38,958 bases of DNA from Thermoproteota archaeon (lineage in GTDB: Archaea > Thermoproteota > EX4484-205 > JAAOZP01): the NCBI GenBank assembly GCA_038883435.1, contig JAVZMD010000002.1:1-38958 (forward strand). The letters are read 5' to 3'. The stretch's first letter is position 1; each line of letters begins with the position of its first letter. The notes beneath the pieces are model-generated. The model was not told where the DNA came from. It did no database searches and saw nothing but the letters and a program-made list of their open reading frames with translations. Below are positions 6,830 through 26,803 of this stretch, one piece after another. The position numbers were made by a program, and so were the translations under genes.

Positions 6830-7433
6830 GATTTTTACCCTCTTTTGGCTCAGATTAGCATGTTAATAAGTCTTTTCTTTGAAAAAAGACTAGAATTCTG
6901 GACCAAAAACGTTAAAAACGTTATAAACAGCCCCCTTTTATAACTGATAGAGGGTGGAATAAGCAATAAACCTTTCGGGCCAAAGACATAAGAGCCCGTT
7001 TTAAAATAGCGTTTGCTCGATTTTTTCAAAAATGTCTTGAGACCATTGGACGCCAAATCTTTTCTCCATGAATAACGTTATCATTTACTAGCAAATGACA
7101 GTATAACACTAGTTACAATCGAATTTTTCACTTGAAACGCCATTGAAAATTATATTTCAAATGAGGATTTGGAAGAGGAGAAAATATCCCACGAGAAGAT
7201 GCTTCAAGACTGTTTGACGAGTATGAGCCTCAACCCTTGGGAAAAATTAATGATTATAAAAAGTTTTTTGAGAGAAAACGAGACCCGAGGGGTGAGAAGG
7301 CTCAGTTAGAAATAAACTTGTCCAATGTAATCAGTTTTAAAACCCATTGAGACAACTTCAAGACAACTTGTAATCATTTTAAACTTCACCTGACCGAACA
7401 TCATGCCCTGCCATAGGTAGTTGAGAACCGCTC

Positions 7434-8218
7434 TTGGCTGCTTAGCTCTTCCTCCTTCTCCTACGCTTCTTTCTCAGTCCCCATTTTTCTTTGAATTCTT
7501 CTTCGAATTTTTTTCTTTCTCCCCAGTTATGGTTTAAGTTGTACGCGTCGTAGACCATTTTCACCCTTTTAACTATTTCTTCGAATATCTGGTCTTCGCT
7601 CATGCCTTTTGGGTCGAATACCGATGTGTAGCAGGTCCTGCCGACGGGGCCTACTATGAATTCTATGTCCATGCCGTACTTCTCCCTTATTCTTCTCGCA
7701 ACTTCCTCACCCCAGTAGAGGTCTATGAAGGTCCCATACCTCCTCCTCAAACGCTCATCTTTAAGGTATTTCTCCCACCTCTTGTTTATTAAATCGTCTA
7801 AAACCTCCTCTATCTCCCTTTCCCTCTCCTTCCTAATCCTCTCCTTCTCCTCTTCGCTCTTCGCCTTCTCCAATCTACGCCTGTAAAGGTCTGCAGTTAT
7901 TATCTCCAACGCCTCCCCATAGTGCTCTCCTAAAGCATGCGAACTCACCTCGATCCTACCATCGGAGAGCCCATGTACTCCAATGCCTTCATCCAAATCC
8001 GTATTCACATGCCATTCCACACCCCTCAGATAGGGTACGGGCCTATCCACTATCTCATAGGCTAAATCGGGCCTAGTTATCTTATCCTTAAACATCTCGT
8101 TCAAGAAAGCCCCAATCCTCTCCAAAAGCTCCCTACTAACCATCTCCCACAAGCCCACCTCTTCCGAATACTTCAATATAAGGATTTTCATAAGGCCCTA
8201 TGTTGCCAGGGTAAGACG
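7434..8218. repeat. Left arm of a ~785-bp inverted repeat (pairs with 11926..12710)
   Basis: The reverse complement aligns with 11926..12710. The first ~75 nt of the ORFs are identical. Homology runs from ~25 nt upstream of the ATG to 8 nt past the stop (TAAGCAGCCAA) and then breaks. Confidence 0.9.
7442..8191 (-). CDS. Uncharacterised 249-aa highly charged protein with a C-terminal RKKRRRRRKS tail (copy A)
   Basis: Intact ORF differing at 23 of 249 residues from 11953..12702 (my count). Central Glu/Lys/Arg-rich helical stretch. I recognise no family. Confidence 0.75.
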   Translation of the reverse strand: MKILILKYSEEVGLWEMVSRELLERIGAFLNEMFKDKITRPDLAYEIVDRPVPYLRGVEWHVNTDLDEGIGVHGLSDGRIEVSSHALGEHYGEALEIITADLYRRRLEKAKSEEEKERIRKEREREIEEVLDDLINKRWEKYLKDERLRRRYGTFIDLYWGEEVARRIREKYGMDIEFIVGPVGRTCYTSVFDPKGMSEDQIFEEIVKRVKMVYDAYNLNHNWGERKKFEEEFKEKWGLRKKRRRRRKS

Positions 8219-8372
8219 GCTTTTACCATCTATTGCTATGGACGTATTCCTCTCAGCCATTCCGAGCTTTAGCTCCTTTCATTTTTCCTCATTTTACAAT
8301 CTTTTATAATCTAATATAATCTAAGTTGCTCAGGCCTCTTATAGGCCCTTCCCAATTTAACTGGTGGTGGCA

Positions 8373-8519
8373 ATGACTTCCTCCTTAGAGAGCGAGATTA
8401 GGTGTGAAGTAGGTAAATGCGGTCACTGTCATTTCGGGAGTAAACACGTTTGTATGGATGGCCTAGTCTTTAGGTACGGTGAGATGACCACTCTACCAAA
8501 AGGCATATCTCCTTTTTAA
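8373..8519 (+). pseudogene. C-terminal remnant (~48 aa) of a hydrogenase-gamma/AsrB/PyrK-type FAD/NAD oxidoreductase carrying the 2Fe-2S Cys motif
   Basis: SLESEIRCEVGKCGHCHFGSKHVCMDGLVFRYGE matches the family end motif C-x-x-G-K-C-G-H-C...vC.DGpVF. Nothing resembling the ~200-aa N-terminal FAD/NAD domains lies upstream. Confidence 0.6.
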
Positions 8520-8626
8520 GGGAAAATTTCCAGATAGTTGACCCTGCAACTCCCCACTTGAGAATAGCATTGGGGTAATGGTAGCGATTTAAAACTTAAA
8601 AAACCTTAATTTAGGTACAAGTGTCT

Positions 8627-10345
8627 TTAGCGTTTTCTCCACATGACTACTATAATGGCTATTAGGACCAGCATGACTATTAGGCTTACATTCATAATGT
8701 TCAATTCAATCCTCCAGCTCGCAACTAGTGTTACTGGTTCTCTTATAGCGAAAGAATAATTAGAGGAGGTTGAAACTATGCTTCCATTGACCTTCCAGCC
8801 CTCGAAAACGTAGTTAGTGAAGAAATCCCTCGGAATAGCTGTTGGAGATATTGAAACGCTTACCGTTGAGCCGTTAACATATTTCCCAGCTCCCGTTATC
8901 ACTCCTCTTTCACTGTAAACCTTTACTTCGAGTATCGTCGGCTTAACAGCTATCGTCAGAGGAAGCCAATTGATTTCCCCCTCATCATCCCTTACTATAA
9001 GGCTTACCGTGTAATTTCCTTCCTTAGCATACGCGTGAGTTATGCTCTCCCCATAGCCTTCACACCCGTCTCCGAAAAGCCACATCCAGCTAACGATTCT
9101 ACCATCTGGATCGATCGAGTTACTAATGAAAGTAATGTTTTCATTCGAATGGGGCTCCTTCGGCGAATATGTGAAATTTACTATCGGTGGAGAATTGTAA
9201 ACCGTTATTACCTTTTCGCAACTATCTTCAAGCCCCTCATCGTCCTTAACCGTCAGTCTAACAGTATAATTTTCCCTCTTCTTGAATATATGCATTACAA
9301 CTCTTCCAGTCGCATTTTCACCATCTCCAAAATCCCACAGCCAGCTTATTATTCTACCATCTAGATCGGTTGAATTATCCGAAAAGTAAACTTTATCTAT
9401 GCAGGTTATCTTTAGAGGGAAGTGAAAGAAATCTGCCTTTGGTGGCATATTTCCGTATTTAACCAAGGGAAGATAGTCTCCAGGCCCATGTGGAACTTGA
9501 GTATCTCCTATCCCGTCTTTATCCTCATCAGCTCCTGTATAATCGCTCCAACTGTTTCCACCAATCCAAGGTCCACCAATGATGTTCTCGCCTTTGGTCT
9601 TAGTTATATTCCATTTATTTCCAGTGTGGTTGCCGACAATGTTCCAATTCACCTCATTACTAAACCTGTTATTGAAGATCGTGTTATTGCTTGAAAAGTA
9701 AAGTAGAATTCCTAAATAATTTTTAAGAATAGTACAGTTTGCAACGACGCTACTAGAGGAAGAATCAAACATGATTCCGTCTTTATTATCGGATAAAGTA
9801 CAATTGTCTACAATGCCGTTAGAGGAGAGTTTTAGGTAGATGCCGACATCATTACTGAAGATTCGACAACTCTTTATAACGATCTTGGAGGAAGAGTTCT
9901 GAAAGACTCCGATCGTCCCATTACTTATCCTACAGCTAACTATCGTAACGTTAGATGAACCATAAACCATAATCCCAAAGGAATTGTTATGAAGCTCGCA
10001 ATTCTCTATCTTTACGTTCTTCACGTTGTAAAGACAAATTCCAGCATGACTTTTATTCCCCTCTATAACCAGGTTCCTTATGACGAAGTATGAGCTAGTG
10101 TTCCAGATCTCTATTCCATTCATAACAATAGAACTTATACTTAGATTCTCTAATACATATGGCCTCTCTCTTGAGCCATCTCCGCTTACTATTATACTCC
10201 ACATCTTGAAATCCTTATCGCCGTTAATGCATATTGGGCCATGCTTTTTATTTTCCCATTGAGGCTCTGTCTTTATAGGACATGAGAATGCGAATAATAA
10301 TATTAAGGAGAATGTCAGGACGAATACTACAGTGGTATCTTTCAT
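8627..10345 (-). CDS. Secreted, membrane-anchored surface protein: right-handed parallel beta-helix (NosD/PbH1-like) repeats, two PKD domains, a C-terminal Ig-like repeat and a TM anchor
   Basis: N-terminal signal/TM segment. Repeated ~22-aa N..I..C.I..N units. GGNSWSDYTGADEDKDGIGDTQVP motif. Two WxFGDG PKD cores. Hydrophobic C-terminus ending WRKR. Many N-x-S/T sequons. Confidence 0.8.
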   Translation of the reverse strand: MKDTTVVFVLTFSLILLFAFSCPIKTEPQWENKKHGPICINGDKDFKMWSIIVSGDGSRERPYVLENLSISSIVMNGIEIWNTSSYFVIRNLVIEGNKSHAGICLYNVKNVKIENCELHNNSFGIMVYGSSNVTIVSCRISNGTIGVFQNSSSKIVIKSCRIFSNDVGIYLKLSSNGIVDNCTLSDNKDGIMFDSSSSSVVANCTILKNYLGILLYFSSNNTIFNNRFSNEVNWNIVGNHTGNKWNITKTKGENIIGGPWIGGNSWSDYTGADEDKDGIGDTQVPHGPGDYLPLVKYGNMPPKADFFHFPLKITCIDKVYFSDNSTDLDGRIISWLWDFGDGENATGRVVMHIFKKRENYTVRLTVKDDEGLEDSCEKVITVYNSPPIVNFTYSPKEPHSNENITFISNSIDPDGRIVSWMWLFGDGCEGYGESITHAYAKEGNYTVSLIVRDDEGEINWLPLTIAVKPTILEVKVYSERGVITGAGKYVNGSTVSVSISPTAIPRDFFTNYVFEGWKVNGSIVSTSSNYSFAIREPVTLVASWRIELNIMNVSLIVMLVLIAIIVVMWRKR

Positions 10346-10355
10346 CTTAGCTATT

Positions 10356-11090
10356 CTACCTCCTATGCTTAATCAAGAGGTAGGCTGCGATAATACTCAC
10401 AAGTATTATTGGAACGGAATATATCGCCCACATGGAGGGTTTTCCCTCTTCTTCAACTAGGACCTTAGGCTTAATAAGTGGGTAATTATCCATGCTATAT
10501 TCATCTATTACATATGGTCTATCGCCTACTCCATCATCATCTATATCAGTTCCATTGTAATCGTCCCAATAGTTTCCTCCAATATATTTCCCTCCCACTA
10601 TGTTTTTCCCCTCGTGCTTCTCTATGTTCCACTTGCTCGGATAAAACATCGCACCAAAAGCTTCACAGTTCTTCGCCTTTAGAGTAAAATTGCCGTGGAC
10701 TAATATCTTCGTATTGTTAAAGAAGTTGTTGTAGATTAAATTGTCTTTTGCGAAGTCGAGTTTTACTCCTATCTGGTTGTTTCGTATTATGCAGCCCGTA
10801 ACCGTGTTATTATGAGAAAGCAAAAGGCGTATGCCATAACTGTTTCCATATAGTTCGCAGTCTTTTATGACGTTATTCGTTGAATACAGAAGGCTTATTC
10901 CCTCGTAATTATTATAAGCTTTACAGTTAACGATAAGGGTGTTATTAGTTGGAGGAAACCTCAGCTTCATTCCAAGGAAAGATGCCTCTCCATCCTTTAA
11001 TTTTATTCCACTATATGAATTATTGTATACTTCACAGTTTATTATGATTGCATCGAAGGTAGAGGATAAGTAGATGCAGTTAATGAAGCA
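10356..11090 (-). pseudogene. 5'-truncated paralog of the beta-helix surface protein: beta-helix repeats, GGNYWDDYNG..DDDGVGD motif and C-terminal TM anchor
   Basis: The track ORF starts at 10970, but the same frame stays open and beta-helix-like (FINCIYLSSTFDAIIINCEVYNNSYSGIKL) up to ~11090. No signal peptide or plausible N-terminus is present. Similarity ends where the + strand 305-aa gene begins. Confidence 0.6.
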
Positions 11091-12008
11091 GTGACGCTGA
11101 TTTACGTGAAGGAAGGGTCTGTCTGCACGCCCGTGTATAGCCTTAAAGCCGGAGACATTAAATCCGCCTTAAACAGGGCGTTTAAGTGGAAGGAGGATAC
11201 GAAGGGGAGGGAACACATAGGCCTGAAGGAGAAGCTCCTCGTATTGCTCGGCTACCAAGCCTACCAGGATTTGAAGGAGGGAATAGGGAGCAAGTACGGG
11301 ATCCTCGTAGAATTCGACAACGGCAGGAAAGCTTACACCGGAGACGAAAGCATAGCAATCCACGTGCCAGAGGGAGCAAGCAAGATGGAAACGATAGTCG
11401 TGACATCAATAGAAGAAAGAATGCGATACGACCTTCATGAGATAATAGAGTGTTTCGCTCGGGGAGAAGAGAGGGATGCAGCTATTCCAATAGGGCGCGT
11501 CGGCGAGCACATCATATACACTAAACATCTCGATGAAATAAAGGAGCTGATTGTCCAAAAGCTCAGGGAAGACGGAGTCCCTGAGGAGCAGATTTGGTAT
11601 TTCCGCGAGAAGGTGGTTTCAAAGAAATTAGGGACAGATGCTTCTGGAGAGAGGGTGACAGACATAGTTTTTAGGGCTCAGGAGGAGATAGTCCTGGGGG
11701 GAAAGAGGTTTAAGAAGGACGATGTCGTCGCGATAGTGGAGATTAAGAGCACCACTAAAACATACTCCGAGAGCGAATTCAAAGAGAGGTTTGGCGAAGC
11801 AGTGGGAGACCTTAAGAATAAATACGTCAATATTGAAGACTATAAAACCGCCATGTATGGTGTTGCCGTCGCCTTCGGTTTCGAGCCCGAGGAAATGCTG
11901 TGGAGCCTAACGCTATTCAACGAGTTATCTTACCCTAGTAATATAGGGCCTTATGAAAATCCTTATATTGAAGTATTCGGAAGAGGTGGGCTTGTGGGAG
12001 ATGGTTAG
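11091..12008 (+). CDS. Uncharacterised 305-aa protein with a C-terminal PD-(D/E)xK nuclease-like motif
   Basis: GERVTDIVFR (Asp at 11661-11663) followed by DDVVAIVEIKS (Glu 11739-11741, Lys 11745-11747) gives a D...E-x-K arrangement. GTG start. The 3' end overlaps the next gene by 56 nt. Confidence 0.65.
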   Translation: MTLIYVKEGSVCTPVYSLKAGDIKSALNRAFKWKEDTKGREHIGLKEKLLVLLGYQAYQDLKEGIGSKYGILVEFDNGRKAYTGDESIAIHVPEGASKMETIVVTSIEERMRYDLHEIIECFARGEERDAAIPIGRVGEHIIYTKHLDEIKELIVQKLREDGVPEEQIWYFREKVVSKKLGTDASGERVTDIVFRAQEEIVLGGKRFKKDDVVAIVEIKSTTKTYSESEFKERFGEAVGDLKNKYVNIEDYKTAMYGVAVAFGFEPEEMLWSLTLFNELSYPSNIGPYENPYIEVFGRGGLVGDG

Positions 12009-12710
12009 TAGGGAGCTTTTGGAGAGGATTAAAGATTACTTGAGCGAGATGTTTAAGGATAAGATAACTAGGCCCGATTTAGCCTATGAGATAGTGGATA
12101 GGCCCGTACCCTATCTGAGGGGTGTGGAATGGCATGTGAATACGGATTTGGATGAAGGCGTTGGAGTGTTTGGGCTCTCCGATGGTAGGATCCGGGTGAG
12201 TTCGCATGCTTTAGGAGAACATTATAGGGAAGGTTTGGAGATAATAACTGCAGACCTTTACAGGCGTAGATTGGAGAAGGCGAAGAGCGAAGAGGAGAGG
12301 GAGAGGATTAGGAAGGAGAGGGAAAGGGAGATAGAAGAAGTGATGGACGATCTAGTCAACAAGAGGTGGGAGAAATACCTTAAAGATGAGCGTTTGAGGA
12401 GGAGGTATGGGACCTTCATAGGCCTCTACTGGGGTGAGGAGGTTGCGAGAAGGATTAGGGAGAAGTACGGCATGGACATGGAATTCATAGTAGGCCTCGC
12501 GGGCAGGACCGGCTACATATCGGTATTCGACCCAAAAGGCATGAGCGAAGACCAGATATTCGAAGAAATAGTTAAAAGGGTGAAAATGGTCTACGACGCG
12601 TACAATTCGTGGTACGATTTAGGAGAAAGAAAAAAATTCGAAGAAGAATTCAAAGAAAAATGGGGACTGAGAAAGAAGCGTAGGAGAAGGAGGAAGAGCT
12701 AAGCAGCCAA
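11926..12710. repeat. Right arm of the ~785-bp inverted repeat (pairs with 7434..8218)
   Basis: See the left arm. The arms bracket a 3707-bp central segment (8219..11925). Confidence 0.9.
11953..12702 (+). CDS. Uncharacterised 249-aa highly charged protein with a C-terminal RKKRRRRRKS tail (copy B)
   Basis: Intact paralog of 7442..8191. Its start lies inside the 3' end of the PD-(D/E)xK-like gene, in a different frame. Confidence 0.75.
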   Translation: MKILILKYSEEVGLWEMVSRELLERIKDYLSEMFKDKITRPDLAYEIVDRPVPYLRGVEWHVNTDLDEGVGVFGLSDGRIRVSSHALGEHYREGLEIITADLYRRRLEKAKSEEERERIRKEREREIEEVMDDLVNKRWEKYLKDERLRRRYGTFIGLYWGEEVARRIREKYGMDMEFIVGLAGRTGYISVFDPKGMSEDQIFEEIVKRVKMVYDAYNSWYDLGERKKFEEEFKEKWGLRKKRRRRRKS

Positions 12711-12817: not shown

Positions 12818-15800
12818 ATGTCCCACGAAGAGTTCTCAAAGCTATTCGACGGCGAGTATGATATGCAATTACTTGAGAACAGAGTTTTGGAATTCTGGGA
12901 AGAGAACAAGATACCAGAAGAGCTTAGAAAACTGCGATTAGAAAGAAATATAGGAAAACTTGGATACGTCGAAGGACCGCCGACATTAAACGGTCGTACA
13001 CACCTAGGCCATACGTGGGGCCGCGCAACGAAGGATATGTGGTATAGGTGGAGGTCTATGCAGGGCTATTATGTTCTCTTCAGGGCTGGTTGGGATTGTC
13101 AAGGTTTGCCTGTTGAGATCGAAGCTGAGAAGGAGCTTGGCTTCTCCAATAAGAAGGAGGCTCTTGCTAAGCTTGGTGAGGAGAGATTCATTGAGGAGAT
13201 TAAGAAGATTCTTCACAAGTATCATGCTGACTGGAGGAGGGTTGATAGGAGATTTGGAATGTTTATGGATTACGATAAAGAATATTTCACATATAAGGAT
13301 GAATATATTGAAAGAGAGTGGAAGTATCTTAAGAGGGCTTATGAACAGGGTCTTCTTGGAAAGGGTTATAGGGTCGTAGCGTATTGTCCAAGCTGCCAGA
13401 CTTCACTAAGCAATGCTGAAGTCGGGCAGGAGTACAGTATGGTTGAAGATCCTTCTGTCTACTTTAAGGTTAGGCTTGAAACGGGAGACTATGTCTTGGT
13501 TTGGACGACGATGCCTTTTACAATAGTCACGGATGAGCTCCTAGCTGTGAATCCTGATGCGGAATATGCTAGGGTCAGAGTTGGGGATGAGAGATGGATA
13601 ATGGTTAGTAATCTCGTCGATTCTTTAATGAGCAAGCTGAATATCTCGGATTACGTTGTTGAAGATACTTTTCCTGGAATAGAGCTCGAGGGGAAGAGGT
13701 ATGAGTATCCGCTTATGGAGGAAGTGCCCCGTCAGAAGATGCTTGAAGAAGAGGATAGTAGGATTCACAGGATTGTTACTGCAGGATTCGTAGATGTTAC
13801 TACTGGGACAGGCGTAGTCCATATTGCTCCAGCTAACGGTGAGGAGGACTTTGAGTTGGCACAGATGCTTAAGATACCTATCTTCTCGCCTTTCGACGAT
13901 GAGGCGAAATTCACTGAAGACGCTGGTTTCTTCAAAGGGGTTTTCGCAAGAGATGCTGACCAGATTGTCCTAGACATTCTTGAGAAGAAAGGGCTTTTAG
14001 TTAAATCTGAGAGAATAGTTCACGAATACCCGTTATGCTGGCGTTCTAAGCATAGGCTAATATGGCTGGCTAGGACAGAATACTTCTACTGGCTTGATAA
14101 GATTGTCGATAAGCTTGTAGAAGCAGCTTCTAAAGTAGAATATTTTTACAATCCTCCTAAGAACAGGTTCCTCTCGTTCATAAAAGAGGGTAAGCCCTGG
14201 TGTATTTCGAGAGAAAGAGTCTGGGGTACTCCGATGCCGATATTCGTATGCGAAAAATGTGGAAAGGAGGAGCTCTTAGCATCGAGGAGGGAAATTGTGG
14301 AAAGGGCCTTAAGCCTCCCAGACGGTGAGAACTTCGAGCTCCATAAGCCTTGGATGGACAAGATCAAGATTAAGTGTTCATGCGGGGGAGTTATGCATAG
14401 GGTGCCGTTTGTTCTCGACACTTGGCATAATAGCGGCGCTGCACCCTATTCAAGCCTTACCGACGAGGAGTATAAAGAGTTTGTGCCGGTCGATTTCCTC
14501 GTCGAATCAATAGACCAGACGCGCGGCTGGGCTTTCACACTGCTTGTGGAAAACGTAATAATGACTGGCGAGCCGAAGGCCCCTTACAAAGCTTTTCTCT
14601 TCTACGGTCAAGTCCTCGACGAGAAAGGGAATAAGATGAGTAAGAGCCTTGGAAATGTCATAAATACTGAAGACGTTATTACAAAGTATTCAGCAGACCT
14701 CTGTAGGTTCTACCTTCTTTGGAAAACTAATCCGATAGAGAATATAAACTTCAGCTTCAGCGAGATGATGGAGAGGCCGTATCAGGTTTTGAATACTTTC
14801 TTTAACCTCGGCAAGCTTTTAAAGCAGAATGCTGAGTACGATGGGTTCGACTATGATAAATATAGTTTGCAATGGGCTCTAAGTAATGGTGAAGTTAAAG
14901 ATCCTGAAAGATGGGTTCTATCATGTCTTCAGAAGCTTGTGAAAACGGTGACAGAGGGCTTCAGTACGATGAGGATTCATGAGTCTACAAGAGCCTTGGA
15001 GAAGTTCATCATAGAGGTTTTAAGCAGACAATATGTGCCAATGGTTAGAAAAGACCTTTGGAGCGATGATCCTGCTGAACTTAACCGTAGAATGACAATA
15101 TACGCTGTACTATTCCACTGTCTCACCACCATAGGCAGACTTATGAATCCCATAACACCATTCCTAGCTGAAGCCTTCTACCAAGGGGTTGTGAAAAAAT
15201 TCAGTAGGAAAACATCAGAATCAGTAAATTTTGAAGAATGGCCCAGGCCTGATGGAAAACTCGTGAACGACGAGCTTGAGAAAGACTTTGAGAAAATAAA
15301 CGAAGTAATAAGCCTTGGCAATTGGGCCAGGATGAAGGCCGGAGTAAAAAGAAGATGGCCGTTGAAGCAGATAGTTCTAATACTAAGAGAGGAGTATGCT
15401 GAAAGCGTAAGCAAGAATATTGAAGTCTTAAAGGAATTACTTAACGTCAAAGAAGTACTCTTAAGCAGAAGCCTTGAAGATGCAGGTATTAAAACAATAG
15501 TGAAGCTAAACTACTCCACAGCAGGCCCAAAGTTTAAGGATAAGGCTGGTAAAGTAGCTTCACTAGTAGCAAGTAAAGCGATGGAAGTCGTCAAGGCCAT
15601 AGATAAGGAAGGCAGGTTTCTGCTGAATGTCGATGGAGAAACCGTTGAACTACTTAGGGAAGACCTAGTCTTCGATTACGAGGCGCCGGAGAACCACGTA
15701 ATGGTTTCAGACAAGTCAGGTTTCGCATTACTCGACGTAAGGAGAACACCAGAGCTTATTGCAGAAGGCTATATGAGAGATGTAGCAAGGAGGATCCAAG

Positions 15801-16027
15801 CATACAGGAAGAAGCTTGAATTAAACCCCACGGAAATCCTTAGCAAAGTCACCGTATACGGTGTGACTCAAGAAGGATGTACTCGTCTAAAGCCACTACT
15901 TAACGAGCTTGCAAACCTAGTTAGAGCAAAAACAGTAGAACTAGATACGACAATCCCAGAAAATAAGGAGGGGCTCGGAGAATACGACATAGAGGGCGAA
16001 AAAATCTACATACGAATAAGCAAATAA
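12818..16027 (+). CDS. ileS: Isoleucyl-tRNA synthetase
   Basis: 1069 aa class I aaRS. PPTLNGRTHLGH (HIGH-type motif), KMSKS (GNKMSKSLGN), a CP1 editing-domain-sized insertion and archaeal-type length. Confidence 0.92.
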   Translation: MSHEEFSKLFDGEYDMQLLENRVLEFWEENKIPEELRKLRLERNIGKLGYVEGPPTLNGRTHLGHTWGRATKDMWYRWRSMQGYYVLFRAGWDCQGLPVEIEAEKELGFSNKKEALAKLGEERFIEEIKKILHKYHADWRRVDRRFGMFMDYDKEYFTYKDEYIEREWKYLKRAYEQGLLGKGYRVVAYCPSCQTSLSNAEVGQEYSMVEDPSVYFKVRLETGDYVLVWTTMPFTIVTDELLAVNPDAEYARVRVGDERWIMVSNLVDSLMSKLNISDYVVEDTFPGIELEGKRYEYPLMEEVPRQKMLEEEDSRIHRIVTAGFVDVTTGTGVVHIAPANGEEDFELAQMLKIPIFSPFDDEAKFTEDAGFFKGVFARDADQIVLDILEKKGLLVKSERIVHEYPLCWRSKHRLIWLARTEYFYWLDKIVDKLVEAASKVEYFYNPPKNRFLSFIKEGKPWCISRERVWGTPMPIFVCEKCGKEELLASRREIVERALSLPDGENFELHKPWMDKIKIKCSCGGVMHRVPFVLDTWHNSGAAPYSSLTDEEYKEFVPVDFLVESIDQTRGWAFTLLVENVIMTGEPKAPYKAFLFYGQVLDEKGNKMSKSLGNVINTEDVITKYSADLCRFYLLWKTNPIENINFSFSEMMERPYQVLNTFFNLGKLLKQNAEYDGFDYDKYSLQWALSNGEVKDPERWVLSCLQKLVKTVTEGFSTMRIHESTRALEKFIIEVLSRQYVPMVRKDLWSDDPAELNRRMTIYAVLFHCLTTIGRLMNPITPFLAEAFYQGVVKKFSRKTSESVNFEEWPRPDGKLVNDELEKDFEKINEVISLGNWARMKAGVKRRWPLKQIVLILREEYAESVSKNIEVLKELLNVKEVLLSRSLEDAGIKTIVKLNYSTAGPKFKDKAGKVASLVASKAMEVVKAIDKEGRFLLNVDGETVELLREDLVFDYEAPENHVMVSDKSGFALLDVRRTPELIAEGYMRDVARRIQAYRKKLELNPTEILSKVTVYGVTQEGCTRLKPLLNELANLVRAKTVELDTTIPENKEGLGEYDIEGEKIYIRISK

Positions 16028-16252: not shown

Positions 16253-16343
16253 GCTCCGGTGGTGTAGCCCGGTATAAAAATTCGGATAGCATACTGGCCT
16301 TTCGAGCCAGGGGTCGCGGGTTCAAATCCCGCCCGGAGCACCA
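16253..16343 (+). tRNA. tRNA-Glu(UUC) with encoded CCA and an apparent ~13-nt insertion or non-canonical intron in the D-loop
   Basis: Acceptor GCTCCGG/CCGGAGC, anticodon arm CTGGC-CTTTCGA-GCCAG (TTC at 16301-16303), T arm GCGGG-TTCAAAT-CCCGC, A-CCA. The D-stem GTGT/GCAT encloses a 23-nt loop where 8-11 nt is expected. Confidence 0.85.
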
Positions 16344-25018: not shown

Positions 25019-25384
25019 CTAAGACGTGCCCGACTGCTTCCTACGCAGTAGTTGCTCTATGGCCTTCGAGACAACTTGCTTGCTTTCAACGACGTAATCC
25101 TCAGGCAAGTGGTCCTCGTAGAAGTTTACGTGCAGGCTCTCAGCATGGCGGAAAACCTCCCTAAGCCTTAGGTCAGGGTACTCCTTATCCAGCTCAGCCA
25201 CGAACACGGCTATGCTCCTATGCGTTCCCAGGCTGATTCCCCTTTCCGAAGCCAAGGCCTTCAAGGCTTCCACGAAAGCCCCCCAAATCTTCTCAGACGC
25301 CTGGGGATAATCCTTTTTAACAATAAGCTCCTCAGCCTCCTTCAAATACTTCGCGTTAAGCCTAAGGTAATCCTGCTTAGACAC
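25019..25384 (-). CDS. PaREP1/PaREP8-family protein (HEPN-like helical domain)
   Basis: YLKEAEELIVKKDYPQASEKIWGAFVEALKALASERG and ...FRHAESLHVNFYE match the archaeal PaREP1 pattern. Confidence 0.75.
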   Translation of the reverse strand: MSKQDYLRLNAKYLKEAEELIVKKDYPQASEKIWGAFVEALKALASERGISLGTHRSIAVFVAELDKEYPDLRLREVFRHAESLHVNFYEDHLPEDYVVESKQVVSKAIEQLLRRKQSGTS

Positions 25385-26706: not shown

Positions 26707-26803
26707 TGGGCCGAGCCAGACTCGAACTGGCAGCCTCCTGCGCTTGCTGTGCGTTTTTTCACGCATGTCAGGCAGGCGTCCTAACCACTTAGACGATCGG
26801 CCC
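26707..26803 (-). tRNA. tRNA-Val(GAC) with a 23-nt intron at the canonical 37/38 position (intron 26743..26765)
   Basis: Acceptor GGGCCGA/TCGGCCC, anticodon stem CCTGC/GCAGG, loop CTGACA|intron|C, T arm GCCAG-TTCGAGT-CTGGC, discriminator A. The intron contains a TGCGT/ACGCA hairpin. Confidence 0.85.

Follow-up and report, generated by a model that had tools for sequence, protein, structure and literature searches.

A probable decayed terminal cassette of a polymorphic giant-protein effector-partner system in Candidatus Brockarchaeota and related Thermoproteota

Polymorphic toxin systems combine a constant 5' gene body with a 3' cassette that, along with its immunity gene, is replaced as a unit; stand-alone toxin-immunity cassettes also occur (Zhang et al. 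2012, PMC3482391). Toxins with the restriction-endonuclease fold are common among them, Tox-REase-7 carrying the motif GxxxE, IxD and ExK, and most archaeal lineages generally lack such systems (PMC3482391). In Thermococcales, VARTIG modules comprise a large surface protein whose C-terminal part is diversified by recombination, together with variable small genes, and their function is unknown (Makarova et al. 2021, PMC8416519). Their organization has been compared with that of polymorphic toxins, the missing nuclease being the main caveat to a toxin reading; polymorphic toxin-type systems have been predicted in archaea, and none had been experimentally characterized as of 2021 (PMC8416519). 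Here we describe a locus at 11091–12702 of a 38,958-nucleotide stretch (hereafter the window) of contig JAVZMD010000002.1 from a Thermoproteota archaeon. Two overlapping open reading frames (ORFs) lie there, one of 305 amino acids (aa) with a nuclease-like motif and one of 249 aa with a poly-Arg tail, which a preliminary description had regarded as a two-gene module of the mobile, selfish or defence/toxin type. We consider it probable that the locus is the decayed terminal cassette of a polymorphic giant-protein effector-partner system found in Candidatus Brockarchaeota and related Thermoproteota.

The 305-aa ORF (11091–12008, plus strand, GTG start) contains the strings TDIVFR and AIVEIKS, and the 249-aa ORF (11953–12702, plus strand), the longest form of the partner gene, ends in RKKRRRRRKS; the overlapping frames, the D...ExK strings and the basic tail are thus all present as first described. 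Close homologs among 5.8 billion proteins numbered four for the 305-aa and five for the 249-aa ORF, with E-values of 1e-36 to 1e-171, so the ORFs are not chance frames. From its first to its last residue, the 305-aa ORF aligns with residues 1387–1689 of a 1689-aa protein at the related locus L002 (70% identity), and the extended frame corresponds to residues 1380–1689 (70–72% identity). The giant-gene 3' remnant, which contains the listed ORF, occupies 11070–12008 on the plus strand and represents the last ~312 codons, or ~18%, of the gene. In L002–L004, which belong to metagenome-assembled genomes (MAGs) labelled Thermoproteota, and in L005 from Candidatus Brockarchaeota (on the same contig as L032), the gene order is the 1689-aa gene, a 242-aa partner homolog and ileS (1069 aa). 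The isoleucyl-tRNA synthetase gene ileS, at 12818–16027 on the plus strand of the window, is the synteny anchor common to the window and the Brockarchaeota genomes. No Pfam domain was found in the 1689-aa protein. Such collinearity with the terminal part of a giant protein shows that the 305-aa ORF is not an autonomous gene.

The remnant has a sharp upstream border. Homology of the window DNA to L002–L007 begins abruptly at 11068–11071, a TAA at 11067–11069 directly precedes the remnant, and the other ~1380 codons of the giant gene left no trace anywhere in the window. Across the border lies a NosD/beta-helix surface-protein paralog lacking its 5' end (10356–11066, minus strand; Pfam NosD and Beta_helix, and a tblastn match to a 572-aa paralog). 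Its first-ATG ORF covers 10356–10970, its minus-strand frame is open up to the junction, and it has no N-terminal signal sequence. Judged by these alignments, the 305-aa ORF is a 5'-truncated giant-gene remnant standing head to head with a 5'-truncated surface-protein paralog, and the earlier observation that the module starts exactly where a neighbouring gene loses its 5' end is borne out. In L009, L010/L012 and L011, which come from other samples, the breakpoint is different, with 52 more giant codons kept and far less of the surface-protein gene; therefore, at least two independent deletions have occurred at this spot.

Four sequence variants retain an intact remnant ORF. For this ORF, the ratio of nonsynonymous to synonymous substitution rates (dN/dS) is 0.41–0.45 against close relatives and 0.24 against the intact L002 gene, compared with 0.08–0.10 for IleRS over the same pairs and 0.3–0.5 for the partner gene. 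By this measure, constraint on the remnant is relaxed, not absent. No native start codon or promoter of the remnant is evident, the promoter scan having used a sigma-70 model that is not meaningful for an archaeon; the ORF may still be translated, though without an evident promoter of its own. In annotation, a short "hypothetical" ORF at this locus that bears a nuclease motif represents a gene remnant and not a gene.

Metagenomes and GTDB species genomes supplied 41 related loci, whose ORFs were scanned with hidden Markov models (HMMs) of the families. A domain-ending ORF lies about 5–25 nt upstream of the partner gene in the scanned loci, down to ~30% identity; the exceptions are L008, with a full-length partner and no domain, and L024–L031, L037 and L040, which hold partner fragments only. 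A search for conserved adjacency thus placed a domain ORF upstream of every full-length partner except that of L008. The coupled pair of the preliminary description therefore stands, but its first member is the 3' remnant of a ~1700-aa gene. Intact domain-ending ORFs upstream of the partner measure 1186–2353 aa and partner genes 220–250 aa. Several MAGs hold two or three loci, and in L001 the homolog comes after several ORFs, including one with a match to part of the giant protein.

Intact loci share the order of a ~400-aa membrane-protein gene, the giant gene, which encodes 1400–2350 aa, and a small translationally coupled gene. The giant begins with a signal or anchor sequence; next come a long region with many glycosylation sites and two or three membrane helices, and the final ~500 aa end in a PD-(D/E)xK-like domain. 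In the L002 giant, the signal/anchor is followed by ~780 residues with 13 glycosylation sequons and by helices at 801–819, 829–847 and 945–963 (how many helices other members have is uncertain); the ~720 residues after the helices are almost sequon-free, and the last 500 aa carry none. Given this nearly sequon-free region and the three helices after the ectodomain, the C-terminus is likely cytoplasmic. Directly upstream of intact giants lies a conserved gene for a coiled-coil protein of ~400 aa, secreted or membrane-bound (loci with this gene: L002, 2355–4946; L020, 1896–3119; L041, 3992–5272), and in L002 it is preceded by a gene for a transglutaminase-like membrane protein. When the giant and its neighbours were scanned against Pfam, the sole match was this weak transglutaminase-like one, in the gene two positions upstream; no known trafficking domain was found in the giant. 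The system may comprise three or four genes.

Comparison of the loci revealed a mosaic of identity along the giants. Between L002 and L020, the upstream genes are 70% identical and the giant bodies 60–72%, whereas the last 500 aa share 27–45%, the C-terminal domains 36% and the partners 33% identity. When L013 or L020 is compared with L018, the last ~500 aa are 63–86% identical, while the bodies are 14–28% identical and of different length. Between P0011 and P0027, identity falls from 72–87% to 29–41% near residue 1000. Such breaks occur ~500–580 aa from the C-terminus in several pairs and in both directions, and domain identity correlates with partner identity (Spearman 0.90 over 105 pairs). 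These alignments indicate that the last ~500 aa and the partner gene form one cassette that is moved by recombination between gene bodies.

Cassettes separated from an intact giant, and loci in decay, are frequent in the family. About half of the scanned loci are truncated or degraded, and stand-alone or orphan cassettes occur in the window, L009–L012, L021–L023, L035 and L039. L021–L023 have end fragments of 77–109 aa followed by the partner gene, which is split in L021, and L035 has a 240-aa domain fragment beside the partner gene; in L031/L037, a deletion fuses the giant N-terminus to the partner. L039 combines a main pair with a downstream orphan pair, the partner gene of the latter being of another type. 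In L033 and L034, two or three partner domains stand in a row, with fused doublets (ORFs of 440 and 455 aa with two domain copies each; L033 2311–3618 and L034 8547–10609). The partner gene has been kept after loss of the giant in L022, L023, L035 and the window, where it is also duplicated. As the preliminary description had supposed from the window, the genes are present in more than one copy in several genomes, and the copies often lie at truncation scars. As separate observations, a third partner copy follows the doublet of L034 in a manner resembling the poly-immunity arrays of toxin loci, and at L024 4240–4983 a C-terminal half of the partner adjoins a putative tyrosine-recombinase fragment (HTLRH...LGH, recognized by eye only), which is the only recombinase hint near any family member.

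Judged from its sequence organization, the family appears to be an archaeal form of polymorphic effector-partner systems that has not been described before. As in the polymorphic toxins CdiA-CT/CdiI and Rhs, a very large protein carries a C-terminal effector-type domain, a small cognate gene lies directly downstream, the cassette and the partner are replaced together, and stand-alone cassettes and arrays of extra immunity-type genes are present. The differences are also clear. Classical polymorphic toxins carry many unrelated toxin folds, whereas the family here has one domain family; the exchanged unit is about 500 aa long and contains several domains; the protein has membrane helices, a probably cytoplasmic C-terminus and no recognized secretion or processing domain; and the partner, with its poly-Arg tail, ranges from neutral to basic. 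Toxin and immunity roles are assigned by analogy. VARTIG is the closest archaeal parallel by organization, with a locus led by a surface-protein gene, a recombining C-terminus and small downstream genes. However, VARTIG varies an immunoglobulin (Ig) domain, whereas in the present system a nuclease-like domain forms the end and the partners belong to one conserved family; no sequence resemblance to VARTIG was seen, though none was tested for. The family displays the swapped 3' cassette, the linked partner and the orphan cassettes together with a nuclease-like end, the last being what VARTIG lacks. It has no Pfam, NCBIfam or PADLOC model, and its members are named "hypothetical proteins" in the sources that name them.

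In the window, the giant body is gone and its last 312 codons abut the truncated surface-protein gene, while the partner gene is intact and has an inverted duplicate. Across the family, truncated cassettes and additional small genes build up beside intact genes or in their place. In the decayed-cassette reading, the domain would be the effector and the small protein its inhibitor or chaperone. A different account takes the giant for an ordinary envelope or membrane machine without a part in conflict, for example, a receptor or a protein that handles DNA and has its nuclease domain in the cytoplasm, whose small basic protein is a dedicated chaperone or regulator; the mosaic would then reflect only recombination between strains, and the window copy would be a dead pseudogene fragment. 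Homology of the giants over their whole length, the predicted cytoplasmic C-terminus, the chaperone-like partner fold described below, the single domain family across cassettes and the conserved ~400-aa upstream gene all suit such a machine. We nevertheless regard it as rather unlikely, in view of the sharp identity breaks ~500 aa from the end with a partner type that switches along with the end piece, the orphan cassettes of another type beside main genes, the partner genes in arrays, the truncation of about half of the loci, and the retention and duplication of the partner after loss of the giant.

A more detailed form of the decayed polymorphic-cassette reading can be offered tentatively, as a possibility to which we lean less than to its general outline. 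In Brockarchaeota and related hot-spring Thermoproteota, membrane-anchored giants would carry nuclease-ended cassettes of ~500 aa that are swapped between strains together with chaperone-like poly-Arg partners; orphan cassettes would serve as a reservoir, and inverted partner copies would supply homology for exchange and inversion. If this is true, archaea would have their own equivalent of contact-dependent toxin-immunity systems, one that differs in topology and perhaps in how it acts. The locus also offers a concrete protein pair for toxicity and neutralization testing in an uncultured hot-spring phylum.

The remnant consists of two parts. Residues 1–124 (11091–11462, plus strand) form a conserved domain of no matched fold, with the motifs LKEKLLvLLGY, GSKYGIL, F-DNG-KAY-G and VPEGASK; this is the best-conserved portion of the family alignments, and it matched nothing in the libraries scanned (Pfam and NCBIfam). 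Residues 125–305 (11463–12005, plus strand) form the PD-(D/E)xK-like half, with motif codons for E139 at 11505–11507, D191 at 11661–11663, E217 at 11739–11741 and K219 at 11745–11747, all on the plus strand. In an alignment of 32 sequences, G135 and D191 are conserved in all 32, E139 in 25, E217 in 29 (with Asp in two more) and K219 in 26. When 1.84 billion representative proteins were searched with a profile, 51 clusters matched the domain, and in long cluster members (647–2376 aa) the domain lies at the C-terminus or at most about 35 residues from it.

A connection to known nucleases was obtained through an intermediate. In the 5.8-billion-sequence database, the alignment profile reached P0062, a 129-aa Thermoproteota protein, with an E-value of 7.7e-4, and P0062 passes the gathering score of Pfam HSDR_N (27.5 versus 25.1 bits). 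A comparison by hhalign of the family with the P0062 group gave 93.7% probability and an E-value of 1.9e-7, with D and ExK in register; with an HMM built without the members most similar to P0062, the match was not significant on its own. Sub-threshold matches of the window protein were mostly to PD-(D/E)xK entries, namely PDDEXK_9, VRR_NUC, HSDR_N, PDDEXK_1 and _4, the FokI cleavage domain, Tox-REase-9 and the catalytic stretch of BpuSI. The motif G-x-x-G-E...D...E-x-K-S-T is shared with HSDR_N/PDDEXK_9-type nucleases, to which the HSDR_N-passing protein provides the profile-profile link; unlike these nucleases, the domain here is fused to a giant membrane protein, is acidic, has lost the Lys in about a fifth of the sequences and gives no direct significant match. 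The C-terminal half likely has a nuclease fold of the PD-(D/E)xK superfamily, and by its position and motifs the domain is a candidate nuclease-type effector. The D/E/K motif proposed at first from the letters alone is conserved among homologs, and its superfamily is probably PD-(D/E)xK.

The start of the partner gene was revised. Copy 1 encodes 233 aa from a conserved ATG (12001–12702, plus strand, including the poly-Arg tail), since its homologs begin at the position of Met17 of the 249-aa form, and a Shine-Dalgarno-like GAGGTGG (11983–11989, plus strand) lies 11 nt before this ATG and is retained in copy 2. The 56-nt overlap of the 305-aa and 249-aa frames exists at the ORF level; the true overlap of remnant and partner is 8 nt, ATGGTTAG, spanning the remnant TAG and the partner ATG. 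The homolog starts, the GAGGTGG site and the short overlap indicate that the 233-aa product is translationally coupled to the remnant. Copy 2, the second copy of the 249-aa gene noted earlier at a distance of 3.7 kb, lies at 7442–8143 on the minus strand (longest ORF 7442–8191; P0007, 233 aa, in the protein database) and shares 90% protein identity with copy 1. An A/T-rich, TATA-like stretch lies upstream of copy 2.

An AlphaFold2 model of the partner was confident (predicted local distance difference test, pLDDT, 85.7; predicted template modelling score, pTM, 0.78) and contained a helix, four strands, a four-helix insertion of ~80 residues, two strands and two helices. In a Foldseek search with this model, nothing in the PDB reached an E-value of 0.001; the best PDB matches were 3cxj, an uncharacterized protein of Methanothermobacter thermautotrophicus, and ExsC, VecA, SycE and CesT. 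The best structural match of all was A0A1S5Y2T8, an uncharacterized 334-aa protein of an uncultured archaeal virus (Foldseek E-value 1.3e-6), and the next-ranked predicted viral structure also came from an uncultured archaeal virus. PDB sequence-profile searches with both families found nothing significant. The alpha-beta core topology of the model resembles that of type III class I chaperones (SycE, ExsC and CesT, and PDB 3cxj), whose genes, like the partner gene, adjoin that of the presumed client. However, the partner has the 80-residue four-helix insertion and the poly-Arg tail, its Foldseek scores are weak and it shows no sequence similarity to them; no type III secretion system was seen in the loci examined. 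The partner is nearly neutral except for its +9 tail, which is a conserved feature of the family. By analogy, the small protein would be a cognate binding partner of the domain, either an immunity-like inhibitor or a dedicated chaperone, which would explain both its co-variation with the domain and the fact that it outlives the domain.

The two partner copies form an inverted repeat. The left arm is 783 bp long (7434–8216; 678 nt at 94% and 89 nt at 100% identity), and the right arm (11928–12710) begins 80 nt before the remnant stop codon; each comprises the partner gene, 73 nt upstream of the ATG (12001 in copy 1) and about 8 nt past the stop. The segment of 3711 nt between the arms (8217–11927) is found in both orientations relative to ileS in related contigs: the giant remnant adjoins the ileS-proximal partner copy in the window, L010/L012 and L011, whereas the surface-protein gene does so in L009 and L008. 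L009 and L010 have near-identical repeat interiors and differ only in the upstream sequence, which would suit inversion but also an arbitrary assembler route through the repeat. L008, which has neither the second partner copy nor the remnant, shows alleles of copy 2 as far as 12044 and those of copy 1 from 12160 onward, the exact product expected from a crossover in a 115-nt identical block. These allele patterns suggest that crossover or gene conversion made partner alleles mosaics of the two window copies, and recombination between the partner copies would invert the 3.7-kb segment.

Misassembly has to be weighed at this point, as the window is a single metagenomic contig, and the contigs of L009 and L011 both end inside the repeat, as is typical of repeat-induced contig breaks. 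That the inverted duplication and the head-to-head junction are chimeras of metagenome assembly is nonetheless very improbable. The arms, ~94% identical overall, differ at about 6% of positions in blocks and are hence distinguishable, which makes the window structure credible; L009, L010/L012 and L011 show the same kind of junction between remnant and surface-protein gene with a different breakpoint, and L009 and L011 also carry part of the left arm.

Several observations weigh against the interpretation as a decayed cassette of a polymorphic effector-partner system. All cassette ends found belong to one domain family, and only four to five close homologs per protein make a small sample. The window protein itself matches Pfam and PDB entries only below threshold, the catalytic Lys is replaced in 6 of the 32 sequences, and the nuclease-like domain is acidic, with an isoelectric point of 5.2. 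The AlphaFold2 model of the 305-aa ORF, built on a four-sequence alignment, reached a pLDDT of 37.6 and gave no usable structure; the chaperone-like match of the confident partner model is weak, with a best PDB E-value of 1.5e-3 and TM (template modelling) scores of 0.31–0.57. The sequon distribution suggests a cytoplasmic giant C-terminus, so the delivery route is not evident. The orientation variants could stem from the path of the assembler through a near-identical repeat.

The genomic surroundings bear on whether the pair moves by itself. The contig encodes ribosomal proteins L1, L10, L11 and S19e, Spt5, an SRP54-type GTPase and prefoldin, as well as eIF6, ThiC, FeoB and IleRS, and is core chromosome. 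Among the window ORFs put through the Pfam scan, none was recognized as a recombinase (integrase or transposase), and a check for integrase proximity in the window was accordingly negative; nor was a known defence gene found among the window ORFs scanned. No family of Pfam, NCBIfam, PADLOC or PHROGs matches either the 305-aa or the 249-aa protein: PADLOC models gave 0 matches for the remnant, the partner, two giants and the upstream gene, and PHROGs gave no match of note for the two window proteins. No relatives of the remnant or the partner were found in viral contigs.

A tightly coupled, multi-copy pair at a rearrangement scar, and a remnant ORF that stays intact in four variants at the dN/dS of 0.41–0.45 given above, would fit a selfish or mobile module of two genes acting autonomously, or else a toxin-antitoxin or defence pair standing alone, with insertion at truncation junctions. 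Such a module is improbable, however, given that the 305-aa ORF is collinear with the end of the 1689-aa gene at a syntenic site and that domain ORFs shorter than about 400 aa in the examined loci are truncations, fragments or contig-end cuts. The lack of recombinases among the scanned window ORFs, the absence from viral contigs, the lack of PADLOC or PHROGs matches of note and the identity of the repeat arms with the partner gene speak against it as well. Three further candidates were rejected: a transposon, because no recombinase was found among the scanned ORFs, the repeat arms are the partner gene and the site is syntenic near ileS in the near clade; a stand-alone nuclease gene, because the homology is collinear with a giant protein; and a housekeeping role linked to ileS, because adjacency to ileS occurs only in the near clade. 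What survives of the preliminary description is an accessory character, for which toxin- or conflict-type pairing is the best analogy, without a sign of mobility or a PADLOC match. Its view that the genes do not belong to housekeeping is likewise upheld.

Base composition had been cited as a further peculiarity of the module. At 11001–12500, G+C is 0.46–0.48, and GC skew and AT skew are both strongly positive; the module is thus richer in G+C and purines than the adjacent surface-protein genes (9501–11000; G+C 0.38), but it lies near the window mean of ~0.43. The compositional outlier is the low-G+C surface-protein genes, not the two-ORF module.

Other features of the window concern its neighbouring genes. 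Inside the segment between the repeat arms, an intact NosD/PKD surface protein of 572 aa (8627–10345, minus strand; Pfam) stands in tandem with the truncated NosD/beta-helix paralog (10356–11066), and the intact protein carries PKD domains and a C-terminal anchor. In L008, the region equivalent to these paralogs is broken into five short ORFs. A stretch of ~440 nt at 6990–7433, between a histone region and the end of partner copy 2, has no counterpart in L008 and no convincing ORF. Rfam reports tRNAs at 16258–16334 and 26707–26803, which ARAGORN does not; the latter, at 97 nt, exceeds the standard tRNA length. A PaREP1-family gene (25019–25384, minus strand) stands alone among otherwise housekeeping genes.

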